Positions 12,169 to 14,745 of a stretch of 16,384 nt of DNA are shown in pieces. The notes under the pieces were generated by a model. It saw nothing but the letters and a program-made list of their open reading frames with translations, searched no databases and was not told the origin of the DNA. The stretch lies in the IMG/VR virus record IMGVR_UViG_2531839530_000004. One strand, given 5' to 3'. How positions within the stretch are numbered: position 1 is the stretch's first letter; each line of letters begins with the position of its first letter. The translations under genes and the position numbers were made by a program. The stretch comes from a virus. Taxonomy: Duplodnaviria > Heunggongvirae > Uroviricota > Caudoviricetes.

Positions 12169-12525
12169 TTAAAAAATCAGAACGCCGTGCGGCCTCAACA
12201 CCCGAAAGGCTTCTTTAAATCTCTGTCGCGAATCATCACGCCAGGCATCTTTATTCAGCCGTCCATATTTCTTTCCCATCCAGGCGTTATCACCAACACT
12301 CTCAAGATGCGGAGGGTCTAATACAACCATCGAAAAAGATGCGTCTGCAAATGATAATGCACGAAAATCTGCGATAATGTCAGGGCTGATAATCAAGCGT
12401 CTCCCATTGCGTAATGTGTATCCTTCTTTTCTGATATCGCTGAATATCGCCCGTTCGTCAGACTTATCGAACCAGAACATGCGGCTGCCACAGCACATAT
12501 CAAGAATGGTTGCCGGTGCACTCAC
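12169..12525 (-). pseudogene. AdoMet-dependent methyltransferase-like fragment (118 aa) ending at an in-frame TAA
   Basis: Product has a degenerate motif-I-like DMCCGSR and a motif-IV-like VVLDPPH in gamma-class order. The frame continues past the TAA (ATTTTTTAATGG, consistent with AAA to TAA) for about 28 more codons; even read through it is too short for a full methyltransferase. Confidence 0.45.
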
Positions 12526-12788
12526 TGCGCCACGTCCTGAAAATTACCCTGATAGAAAGCCAGTATGCGCTGCATAACTTCGCTCTTCCGGCACTCGCGA
12601 CAGATTATGTTTAGGCGACTGTCGTAGCGACGTATTTCTCCGTCAGGTGATGACCAGATAAGGTCCGGATCAACCACAGCAGGTTTCTTCACCTTTGCCC
12701 TCGAGAGTTTTTTGCGGGCGTTTTGCCAGTCCTTACGCGCCTGTTCAGAGGGGAATAACCCGTATCCGGAGCTTAAGTTGCACGCCAT
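12522..12788 (-). CDS. Hypothetical protein (up to 88 aa) translationally coupled to the methyltransferase-like ORF
   Basis: Stop overlaps the downstream start (ATGA). The ATG at 12788 has no ribosome-binding site; an internal GTG at 12692 preceded by GAGGG would give 56 aa. Start uncertain. Confidence 0.35.
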   Translation of the reverse strand: MACNLSSGYGLFPSEQARKDWQNARKKLSRAKVKKPAVVDPDLIWSSPDGEIRRYDSRLNIICRECRKSEVMQRILAFYQGNFQDVAQ

Positions 12789-12846
12789 TGGGTGGGTTAA
12801 GCATAAATGTATTCCTGGTGCTAAATGGCCCGAAATTCAGGCAGAG

Positions 12847-14745
12847 ATGCGCATCTGGAAAAAACGTCGCGAAGGTGAACGCAAGGAAACCGGAAAATAC
12901 ACGTCTGTTGTTGATCTCGCCCGCGCCAGAGCCAATCAACAGTACACTGAAAATTCAACAGGAAAAATCAGCCCGGTCATTGCTGCCATTCATCGCGAAT
13001 ACAAGCAGACATGGAAAACACTGGATGACGAACTGGCCTACGCTCTCTGGCCTAGTGATGTGGATGCCGGAAACATTGACGGCAGCATCCATCGCTGGGC
13101 AAAAAAAGAAGTTATCGACAACGACCGCGAAGACTGGAAGCGTATCTCGGCATCAATGCGCAAACAGCCTGATGCCCTTCGCTACGACCGCCAAACTATT
13201 TTTGGCCTTGTCCGTGAGCGTCCGATCGACATTCACAAAGATCCCGTAGCACTGAACAAATATATCTGCGAATACCTGACGACAAAGGGCGTGTTTGAGA
13301 ATGAAGAAACAGACCTGGGCACTGTTGATGTTCTCCAGTCATCAGAAACACAAACTGATGCAGTGGAAACTGAGGTATCTGATATCCCAAAAAATGAAAC
13401 CGCGCCGGAAGCTGAACCATCTGTAGAGCGTGAGGGGCCGTTCTATTTCCTCTTCGCAGATAAGGACGGAGAAAAATACGGTCGCGCAAACAAACTCTCT
13501 GGTCTGGATAAGGCACTGGCTGCTGGCGCCACTGAAATCACAAAAGAAGAATATTTTGCCCGAAAAAATGGCACATACACGGGCTTACCGCAAAATGTAG
13601 ATACCGCTGAAGATTCAGAACAACCAGAGCCGATAAAAGTTACCGCTGACGAAGTAAACAAAATTATGCAGGCAGCCAATATCAGCCAGCCTGACGCCGA
13701 TAAGTTGCTTGCTGCATCACGTGGTGAATTTGTTGAAGGGATTAGTGACCCGAATGATCCGAAATGGGTTAAGGGGCTCCAGACCCGCGATTCTGTGAAC
13801 CAGAACCAGCATGAATCGGAACGGAACTACCAAAAAGCGGAACAAAACAGTCCAAATGCGTTACAAAACGAGCCAGAAACGAAACAGCCTGAACCAGTAG
13901 CGCAACAGGAAGTGGAAAAAGTCTGCACCGCCTGCGGTCAGACCGGCGGCGGCAACTGCCCTGATTGTGGCGCGGTGATGGGCGACGCAACATACCAAGA
14001 AACATTCGATGAAGAGTATCAGGTTGAAGTTCAGGAAGATGATCCGGAGGAAATGGAAGGCGCTGAACATCCACACAAGGAGAACACTGGCGGCAATCAG
14101 CATCACAATAGCGATAATGAAACTGGCGAGACGGCAGATCACCCAATTAAGGTGAACGGTCATCACGAAATCACATCCACCAGCAGGACGTGTGACCATC
14201 TAATGATCGACCTTGAAACCATGGGAAAAAATCCTGATGCCCCGATCATCTCAATAGGTGCAATATTTTTCGATCCGCAAACCGGAGATATGGGACCGGA
14301 ATTTAGTAAGACTATCGATCTGGAAACTGCTGGCGGAGTCATTGATCGGGACACCATTAAATGGTGGCTTAAGCAATCACGCGAAGCGCAATCTGCCATT
14401 ATGACCGATGAAATCCCGTTAGATGATGCACTGTTACAATTGCGAGAATTTATCGACGAAAACTCCGGTGAATTTTTTGTTCAGGTTTGGGGAAATGGAG
14501 CCAACTTCGACAACACGATTTTGCGCCGTTCATACGAACGGCAGGGGATCCCCTGCCCGTGGCGTTACTACAACGATCGCGATGTACGCACAATCGTTGA
14601 GCTGGGGAAAGCCATAGACTTCGATGCCAGAACGGCTATTCCATTCGAAGGTGAGCGCCATAATGCACTTGATGACGCCCGTTACCAGGCAAAATACGTT
14701 TCAGTTATCTGGCAAAAACTGATCCCGAGTCAGGCTGATTCTTAA
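12847..14745 (+). CDS. Phage-type exonuclease with C-terminal DnaQ-like DEDDh 3'-5' exonuclease domain; start uncertain
   Basis: C-terminal region carries the DEDDh motifs in order: MIDLETMG, WGNGANFDNT, HNALDDARYQ; a CxxC-x9-CxxC zinc ribbon (CTACGQTGGGNCPDCG) and acidic low-complexity linker precede it; lies directly upstream of xis-int. The frame is open from 12712 (TTG); other candidate starts are TTG 12778 (GGAG RBS) and ATG 12847. Confidence 0.75.
   Translation: MRIWKKRREGERKETGKYTSVVDLARARANQQYTENSTGKISPVIAAIHREYKQTWKTLDDELAYALWPSDVDAGNIDGSIHRWAKKEVIDNDREDWKRISASMRKQPDALRYDRQTIFGLVRERPIDIHKDPVALNKYICEYLTTKGVFENEETDLGTVDVLQSSETQTDAVETEVSDIPKNETAPEAEPSVEREGPFYFLFADKDGEKYGRANKLSGLDKALAAGATEITKEEYFARKNGTYTGLPQNVDTAEDSEQPEPIKVTADEVNKIMQAANISQPDADKLLAASRGEFVEGISDPNDPKWVKGLQTRDSVNQNQHESERNYQKAEQNSPNALQNEPETKQPEPVAQQEVEKVCTACGQTGGGNCPDCGAVMGDATYQETFDEEYQVEVQEDDPEEMEGAEHPHKENTGGNQHHNSDNETGETADHPIKVNGHHEITSTSRTCDHLMIDLETMGKNPDAPIISIGAIFFDPQTGDMGPEFSKTIDLETAGGVIDRDTIKWWLKQSREAQSAIMTDEIPLDDALLQLREFIDENSGEFFVQVWGNGANFDNTILRRSYERQGIPCPWRYYNDRDVRTIVELGKAIDFDARTAIPFEGERHNALDDARYQAKYVSVIWQKLIPSQADS

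Follow-up and report, generated by a model that had tools for sequence, protein, structure and literature searches.

A very probable short-repeat deletion brings exonuclease and DUF977 fragments head to head in a Qin-type prophage of Escherichia coli

The window, i.e., the whole 16,384-nucleotide stretch of DNA that was analyzed, is a Qin-type lambdoid prophage of E. coli adjoining rspB. The exonuclease (exo) and DUF977 frames that face each other head to head in it are very probably two N-terminally truncated stubs created in situ by a deletion of ~4.6 kb. We propose that the endpoints of the deletion were codon ~58 of DUF977/LygF, an early-right gene, and codon 163 of exo, an early-left gene, and that it was a short-homology (illegitimate, slippage-type) event between 10-bp repeats, of which one copy would have been left. 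The minus-strand cluster appears next to exo here only because the ~4.6 kb between them was deleted.

Prophage identity and gene fragments at the boundary

The features to which the analysis refers are as follows, with the main source of each assignment in parentheses.

2057-12771, minus: early-right (pR-type) operon remnant in native orientation (PhiR42_1 alignment, annotation)
12169-12525, minus: Class I SAM-dependent methyltransferase, intact, 118 aa (annotation, profile match)
12522-12771, minus: C-terminal DUF977/LygF stub, ~82 of 140 codons kept, N-terminal ~58 codons deleted
12522-12788, minus: open reading frame of 88 aa, ATG start
12712-14745, plus: open frame of 677 codons, TTG start
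12712-12761, plus: chance extension of the exo frame with the TTG start, antisense of the DUF977 stub, not exo-derived (DNA identity starts at 12762)
12762-12771, no strand: deletion junction, single kept copy of a 10-bp direct repeat, GTATCCGGAG (base-level alignments)
12763-14745, plus: exo stub, ydfE family, codons 164-823 of an 823-aa gene (EC24 alignment, Pfam, PGAP)
12772-12788, minus: chance extension of the DUF977 frame, antisense of exo, supplying the ATG of the 88-aa frame
14818-15069, plus: excisionase (DUF1233 family), intact (annotation, profile match)
15089-16384, plus: tyrosine integrase, intact (PGAP start ~15104), abutting the rspB side of the chromosome

Window positions 2057-12771 align with positions 20000-9298 of the PhiR42_1 record in one collinear blastn alignment (99.78% identity over 10715 nt), and 12762-16384 match positions 9001-12623 of the E. 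coli EC24 locus (L004) at 99.56%. The early-right remnant holds the Qin-type gene set in collinear order, comprising lysis genes, rzpQ-rrrQ-ydfR-essD, the csp genes cspB/cspF, the Q antiterminator gene ydfT, ydfU, rem, hokD, relBE, ydfV and flxA, together with an ISNCY transposase gene, pseudogenes, the methyltransferase gene and the DUF977 stub. An identical locus in strain 300709 has int followed by rspB and ynfA, and the EC24 and K-12 prophages occupy the same site. The dicA/dicC immunity region and the dicBF operon of Qin-type prophages are missing, as the sequence passes straight from DUF977 to exo codon 164; no DicF RNA was matched by Rfam within the window, and the list of its open reading frames contains none of the dicA/dicC type. 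This absence is the deletion itself and is no argument against a common Qin-type ancestry.

The geometry given in the preliminary description is real: the 88-aa minus-strand frame covers the first ~77 nt of the exo frame (12712-12788 in the list of open reading frames), and the genes just upstream of exo, the methyltransferase and the DUF977 fragment, are both on the opposite strand. Homology to the real genes is more restricted, with that of DUF977 ending at 12771 and that of exo beginning at 12762. The 77-nt overlap results from each stub's frame remaining open by chance into the antisense of the other (50 nt for exo, 17 nt for DUF977) and is not a designed feature. A true overlap of exo under the DUF977 stub was considered because tblastn of the 677-aa frame against phage records began at residue 4, and was rejected: the first ~14 residues of that alignment are a spurious extension, and DNA identity runs only from 12762. 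No Shine-Dalgarno-like sequence was read before the ATG of the 88-aa frame. A promoter and terminator scan of 12100-13300 returned three promoter-like sites against 1.1 +/- 1.1 expected, none of them at the junction and all at 12330-12383 within the methyltransferase gene; a new exo promoter finds no usable support in it.

The 88-aa frame is a fragment of a member of the DUF977 (LygF-like) family. The Pfam DUF977 match in it covers only profile positions 62-134 of 134 (55.9 bits), short of the whole length, whereas the full-length LygF of PhiR42_1 (140 aa) matches positions 1-134; the methyltransferase gene is directly downstream of DUF977/LygF in PhiR42_1. The suspicion that exo might be truncated at its N-terminus, with its start and promoter left undefined, is borne out: 660 of 823 codons are kept, relatives that retain the region have 823 aa, and the first 163 codons, the native start and the operon promoter are absent (in EC24 the exo gene starts at position 8513 of the same locus). 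PGAP labels the two stubs "incomplete; missing N-terminus," and in RefSeq they are already listed as partial pseudogenes.

The exo product has a RecE-like central part and an intact C-terminal DEDD Rv2179c-like 3'-5' exonuclease domain (PF16473; 226.8 bits against a cut-off of 27; profile positions 2-177 of 177), which lies at residues 496-667 of the window frame and 642-813 of the 823-aa protein. It is not a lambda-Exo-type exonuclease; a Pfam scan of both the window frame and the 823-aa protein gave only Rv2179c-like and RNase_T, with no YqaJ/lambda-Exo domain. For the RecE model NF007259, residues 246-623 match model positions 271-600 of 877 with 282.7 bits, well below the equivalog cut-off of 1269. 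Like RecE (exodeoxyribonuclease VIII of the Rac prophage) and lambda Exo, the gene occupies the end of the early-left operon with xis-int downstream of it, but the catalytic C-terminal domain of RecE is unmatched in it, the DEDD 3'-5' exonuclease domain standing there instead, and the bet/recT partner is absent from the operon of its relatives PhiR42_1 and Tritos. The name "exodeoxyribonuclease VIII" carried by several phage records is unsupported by the family tests run here.

The deletion junction and the interval kept by relatives

In the relatives that keep the region, which are PhiR42_1, Tritos, E. coli EC24 (at the same rspB site) and the K-12 Qin prophage, the two points joined in the window are separated by ~4.6 kb, and their relative orientation is as in the window. 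One strand carries cI-ydfABC-(dicF-dicB)-ydfD-exo(823 aa)-xis-int and the opposite strand cro-cII-O-LygF/DUF977(140 aa)-methyltransferase, so that cro/dicC, cI/dicA, cII, O, ydfABC and ydfD, and in some of them dicF and dicB, fall between the points. The same-strand genes upstream of exo are ydfD and, in Tritos, EC24 and K-12, also dicB and dicF, where PhiR42_1 has two other small open reading frames. All relatives examined have divergent early-left and early-right operons. DicA represses the dicBF-ydfDE transcript of K-12, whose start is at dicBp, upstream of ydfA (PMC10448788); this places the native promoter of the exo strand inside the deleted interval. Comparison with full-length homologues and relatives, for which the preliminary description had called, returned, in the relatives that keep the region, the 823-aa exonuclease with ydfD upstream on the same strand, and does not refute the truncation.

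The breakpoint suspected at ~12.7-12.85 kb is located at 12762-12771. Both window flanks align to one PhiR42_1 strand in the same orientation: the window is identical to the LygF side as far as 12764 and follows it with one mismatch to 12771, and it is identical to the exo side from 12762. In PhiR42_1 the LygF copy of the repeat reads GTAGCCGGAG and the exo copy GTATCCGGAG (positions 422-431 and 5042-5051 of locus L002), on the same strand and 4620 bp apart, and they agree at 9 of 10 positions, GTA(G/T)CCGGAG. Neither an IS sequence nor a terminal inverted repeat nor filler DNA was found at 12762-12771. The window has what a short-homology deletion leaves behind: its two flanks run collinearly, without a change of orientation, along a single reference in which the intervening DNA is present, a direct repeat (9/10 match) stands at both endpoints in that reference, and the junction has one copy and no filler. 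Like short-homology deletions in E. coli, this one has two direct 10-bp copies flanking the lost segment in relatives and one copy remaining; it differs in that none of the intact alleles found has a perfect repeat, the match being 9 of 10 positions in each. Its route may have been replication slippage or another RecA-independent one. Among 3273 matching genomes no intact DUF977 allele with T at the mismatched position, which would have given a perfect 10-mer, was found, the best match being 99.2% with one mismatch. Because the repeat is imperfect in all these alleles, the crossover would have occurred within the 3-bp GTA or through a mismatched 10-bp heteroduplex.

A 300-bp junction probe, in which query position 146 corresponds to window 12762 and position 155 to window 12771, was covered over at least 80% in 90 of 5426 complete E. 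coli genomes. In a spread sample of the other matches listed, the alignments either covered only query 146-300 or started at query 1-3 and ended no later than query 155, and thousands of genomes carry both probe halves unjoined. The median number of matching places per genome is 2-3, reflecting paralogous lambdoid prophages. The 90 junction-bearing genomes were independently assembled and come from various hosts and countries.

The K-12 Qin (Kim) prophage shares the rspB site and the early-right gene set and order with the window, matching 5003-9373 at 99.7%, and its ydfE belongs to the same exonuclease family, being 100% identical to window 12762-13040. Its pattern of loss is opposite. Still present in K-12 are dicC, dicA, ydfABC, dicF, dicB, ydfD and the first ~256 codons of exo (ydfE); the remainder of exo is gone beside IS2E together with xis and the 5' part of int, as is the ISNCY-to-O region. 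In the window, by contrast, the immunity region and dicBF are deleted, and what persists is exo from codon 164 to 823 along with xis and int. The two prophages are independent decay routes of the same phage type. The PhiR42_1, Tritos, HannyBb and mEp460 records have the same gene order, with 99.8% identity in the early-right flank and 97-98% in the exo protein, and carry the full 4.6-kb immunity/replication region, the 140-aa DUF977/LygF and the 823-aa exo, none of which the window has. A literature search on PhiR42_1 or ECOR prophage induction returned nothing relevant.

Alternative explanations for the junction

An inversion or module swap had been suggested in the preliminary description, a reading overturned by the finding that the cluster on the minus strand belongs to the phage itself, as its early-right operon (cro-cII-O-DUF977-methyltransferase...Q-lysis), and is natively oriented with respect to exo-xis-int. 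That a DUF977-methyltransferase segment was flipped head to head with exo, as the local picture of divergent genes beside exo might suggest, is extremely improbable: the cluster is already opposite to exo-xis-int in each examined relative that keeps it (PhiR42_1 and EC24), both flanks have the same orientation on a single PhiR42_1 strand, the 10.7 kb to the left of the junction are collinear with PhiR42_1 and contain no second breakpoint, and the intervening 4.6 kb are absent rather than relocated, as neither DicF nor dicA/dicC-type frames occur in the window. Module swapping, or a separate type of phage whose shorter exo is natively divergent from an accessory cluster, would accord with the mosaicism of lambdoid phages and with an exo frame that is open for 677 codons from a possible TTG start. 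Such an architecture is highly unlikely, given that N-terminal parts are missing from both genes (DUF977 profile 1-61 and exo codons 1-163), that the flanks are 99.6-99.8% identical to relatives differing by a simple gap, and that the junction is confined to 90 of the 5426 genomes against thousands with the halves unjoined. A phage with no replication, repressor or early-promoter region between the stubs would also not be autonomous.

The prophage is rich in insertion sequences (ISNCY at 9189-10502), IS150 and IS600 insertions occur in sister strains, and K-12 lost the 3' part of exo through the 5' part of int beside IS2E. A transposable element might likewise once have stood at the junction and caused a deletion next to it, as IS2 did in K-12 Qin, so that the deletion was IS-mediated or site-specific. 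We consider this very unlikely, since 12762-12771 contain no IS, terminal inverted repeat or filler DNA and the flanks run unbroken into the shared 10-bp repeat, for which a short-homology deletion suffices alone. An origin in two steps, e.g., through a larger rearrangement or an IS that was later lost, is a formal possibility, against which the lack of extra sequence at the junction also speaks. Finally, the several paralogous lambdoid prophages of E. coli can confuse assemblers, but the chance that two prophage fragments were joined by an assembly artefact is close to nil, as the identical junction occurs in 90 independently assembled complete genomes.

Consequences for the prophage and its annotation

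The short-homology deletion would have left the stubs head to head, each without its native start. Measured against PhiR42_1 it would be 4620 bp, and it would have removed the divergent control region and its neighbors, namely the O-type replication gene, cII, cro/dicC, cI/dicA, the pL-equivalent promoter dicBp, ydfA-C and ydfD, along with both gene N-termini and, probably, dicF and dicB; this size and this list are inferred from mosaic relatives and not from a direct ancestor. With the starts gone, and with the early promoters and repressor that relatives have in this interval gone as well, both stubs are, on sequence grounds, probably pseudogenes. The prophage is without the immunity, replication-initiation and division-inhibitor/lysis genes that fill the interval in relatives, and still has intact xis, int, Q, lysis and toxin-antitoxin genes. 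The junction is ordinary prophage decay and will not surprise a specialist.

It is unlikely, if somewhat conceivable, that the deletion was a selected "domestication" rather than neutral decay and that the truncated exo might still be made and serve the host. If so, one event would have locked the prophage in place by taking away both early promoters and the DicA repressor, along with toxic genes that DicA controls in relatives (ydfD and, where they occur, dicF/dicB). The 660-aa exo fragment with its intact DEDD domain, xis, int and the toxin-antitoxin modules would then be potentially expressible from chance or internal promoters, and the exo fragment could start at, e.g., Met46 of the 677-codon frame, at 12847.

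The main value of these results lies in annotation: the 88-aa and 677-aa open reading frames should not be called genes, and their apparent antisense overlap reflects no regulatory design. The prophage also offers a clean example of a lambdoid prophage that appears to have been made permanently defective by one short-repeat deletion, which would have taken the repressor, the gene for replication initiation and the divergent control region (pL/pR) and left both early operons as stubs without native promoters. Taken with K-12 and EC24, it shows that Qin-type prophages integrated at this one site have decayed by no fewer than three independent routes. The sequence of the junction, found in 90 genomes, could be used as a lineage marker for them.

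A further observation concerns a small RNA of the prophage. No hok open reading frame was found beside an orphan sok-like RNA at 10576-10747.

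Junction between the DUF977 and exonuclease genes

The list of open reading frames agrees with the preliminary description of a divergent exonuclease gene (exo, ydfE family) overlapped by an 88-aa minus-strand ORF; the two frames share 77 nt (12712-12788):

12169-12525, minus strand: methyltransferase ORF, 118 aa, coming after the 88-aa ORF
12522-12788, minus strand: 88-aa ORF (DUF977 stub), from ATG at 12788 down to 12522
12712-14745, plus strand: exo frame, 677 codons, from TTG at 12712
14818-15069, plus strand: excisionase, downstream of the long ORF
15089-16384, plus strand: tyrosine integrase, after the excisionase

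In DNA alignments with the locus extract of phage PhiR42_1 (L002), the side of LygF, its DUF977 gene, is identical to the window at 12500-12764 and has one mismatch up to 12771, beyond which similarity collapses, while the exo side is identical from 12762 on and its similarity collapses leftward. Two direct copies of a repeat lie 4620 bp apart in PhiR42_1, and the window retains one copy:

LygF side, L002 422-431: AACCC, repeat GTAGCCGGAG, TTGTAT
Window, 12762-12771: AACCC, repeat GTATCCGGAG, CTTAAG
Exo side, L002 5042-5051: GCCAT, repeat GTATCCGGAG, CTTAAG

The event is a deletion between short direct repeats with truncation of both genes, and all that lies between them in relatives is absent from the window. 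As both alignments run plus-to-plus on the same L002 strand, there was no inversion. The T variant of the repeat was found in no intact DUF977 allele among 5426 genomes, the best match of the T-allele probe being 99.2%, so that, probably, the ancestral copies matched at 9 of 10 positions and the crossover fell in or beside GTA.

On the plus strand, 12712-12761 is the antisense of the DUF977 stub and is by chance stop-free in the exo frame; on the minus strand, 12772-12788 is the antisense of exo and supplies the ATG of the 88-aa ORF by chance. Hence, neither gene is the source of the opening residues of the 88-aa ORF or of residues 1-17 of the 677-aa ORF. No Shine-Dalgarno-like motif was read ahead of the ATG at 12788, where the preceding bases are ...TTAACCCACCCA.

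A 300-bp probe centered on the junction (12617-12916) reached a coverage of at least 80% in 90 of the 5426 complete genomes searched. Among hits sampled across the ranking, every other one listed covered either query 146-300 only (annotated exonuclease) or a stretch starting at 1-3 and ending at or before 155 (annotated DUF977 family protein), and these limits, 146 and 155, correspond to 12762 and 12771 of the window. The junction is therefore real and confined to a minority of genomes, its two halves being normally unlinked, and an assembly artefact is rejected.

Native arrangement and consequences of the deletion

Region 11500-15100 has 100% megablast matches in many complete E. coli genomes, including strain 300709, whose annotated locus is a Qin-type lambdoid prophage adjoining rspB/ynfA (rzpQ, rrrQ, ydfR, essD, cspB, cspF, ydfT (Q), ydfU, rem, hokD, relBE, ydfV and flxA). 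Positions 20000-9298 of the PhiR42_1 record and 2057-12771 of the window form a single collinear alignment (99.78% over 10715 nt), spanning the lysis genes through LygF. An Rfam scan found no DicF in the window.

By tblastn, the long ORF matches the phages PhiR42_1, HannyBb, Tritos and mEp460 with 86-98% identity. The exonuclease gene of PhiR42_1 and Tritos is 2472 nt long (823 aa) and is preceded on the same strand by cI, ydfA/B/C-like genes and ydfD, with DicF and dicB additionally between ydfC and ydfD in Tritos, and followed by xis and int. The opposite strand, divergent from cI, carries cro, cII, an O-type replication gene, LygF (140 aa) and the methyltransferase gene in PhiR42_1, and cro, a Rha-family regulator, a replication gene and a 140-codon ORF running off the locus edge in Tritos. 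At the same rspB site, E. coli EC24 carries dicB and ydfD ahead of the 823-aa exonuclease gene, and the K-12 Qin order is dicC/dicA-ydfABC-dicF-dicB-ydfD-ydfE. Because relatives show the same divergent layout, the divergence of the two clusters, which are pR-type and pL-type early operons, is native, and only their abutting is not. Of the rearrangement suspected at 12.7-12.85 kb, the breakpoint, now placed at 12762-12771, and the N-terminal truncation stand, but an inversion or module swap does not.

The long ORF has an Rv2179c-like DEDD 3'-5' exonuclease domain at its C-terminus (residues 496-667; Pfam, 226.8 bits), and in the 88-aa ORF the match to DUF977 is confined to the C-terminal half of the profile (positions 62-134 of 134), with about 82 of 140 codons retained. 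The EC24 locus extract (L004) aligns from 9001 to 12623 with 12762-16384 of the window (99.56% identity) and its exonuclease gene starts at 8513, so that exo in the window has lost 163 codons of the 823-aa gene and retains 660. At the 300709 locus, NCBI's pipeline labels the DUF977 gene and a "3'-5' exoribonuclease domain-containing protein" as "incomplete; missing N-terminus".

The deletion probably occurred in situ in the integrated prophage via short-homology illegitimate recombination, since autonomous propagation would be impossible for a phage that lacks the repressor, the early promoters and the replication initiator. With the deletion, the exo-xis-int strand would have lost its native promoter. 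In K-12, ydfD and ydfE belong to a DicA-repressed transcript whose start, dicBp, lies upstream of ydfA (PMC10448788); a consensus scan for promoter-like sites found none at the junction. Most likely neither stub is expressed and both are pseudogenes, and a lytic switch would be impossible for this element, although Q, lysis genes, relBE, hokD, xis and int are intact. This is decay of an ordinary kind for a prophage, and RefSeq already records it in its pseudogene calls.

Exonuclease family and other decay routes

The prophage exonuclease (window 12763-14745, plus strand; full-length in L004 8513-10984) is built like a chimera: a central stretch of ~380 residues shares homology with the portion of RecE that is not catalytic (NF007259 positions 271-600), and at the C-terminus the DEDD Rv2179c-like 3'-5' domain takes the place of the RecE nuclease domain. 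Membership in the lambda-Exo or RecE family was rejected, as the Pfam scan found no YqaJ domain and the RecE equivalog model NF007259 matched the central region only (282.7 bits versus a cut-off of 1269). The name "exodeoxyribonuclease VIII" in several phage records is unsupported by this test. In a sequence search of solved structures, the only hits (8kel and 8ken, E about 1e-5) were weak and fell in the DEDD domain. No recT/bet partner is found in the operon.

K-12 Qin shows decay complementary to that of the window: its ydfE, cut by IS2E, retains exo codons 1 to ~256, whereas the window retains codons 164-823, and the 279-bp overlap (K-12 locus extract L006 7567-7845; window 12762-13040) is 100% identical. 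The remainder of exo, xis and the 5' part of int are missing from K-12 Qin, as is the ISNCY-to-O stretch. EC24, at this same site on the chromosome, has lost cro/cI/ydfABC/dicF, an independent third pattern of deletion.

Other elements of the prophage

Further features are:

9189-10502, minus strand: intact ISNCY-family transposase gene, 437 aa, HTH and rve_3 domains, inside the early-right operon
10576-10747, minus strand: sok antitoxin RNA match (Rfam, 104 bits; gathering score 59)
431-816, minus strand: cspA-type thermoregulator 5' UTR match, 113 bits
3326-3718, minus strand: cspA-type thermoregulator 5' UTR match, 167 bits

The sok match directly adjoins the transposase gene, ~3.3 kb from the sole hok gene of the window, hokD (7134-7289), with no hok-like ORF nearby, and appears to be an orphan left over from hok/sok regulation. 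In EC24, hokD is directly preceded by 190 bp homologous to this region (91.6% identity); PhiR42_1, an active-looking phage, has the arrangement of the window.

PhiR42_1 also carries the ISNCY element at the same place, within the 99.8% collinear block. K-12 Qin homology breaks within the element, at 9373, and in strain 300709 the element is truncated beside an IS150 copy, which separates it from the methyltransferase side. From the element to the methyltransferase gene (10500-12169) there are decayed genes only: the sister-strain annotation shows an internal stop in a DUF7167 gene and a frameshift in a hypothetical one; as PhiR42_1 is 99.8% identical here, the phage record shares these defects. 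Both cspA-type matches belong to prophage cold-shock-protein paralogues, which are normal for Qin; that at 3326-3718 is a cspB-type gene, placed by sister-strain annotation between the Q antiterminator and lysis genes.
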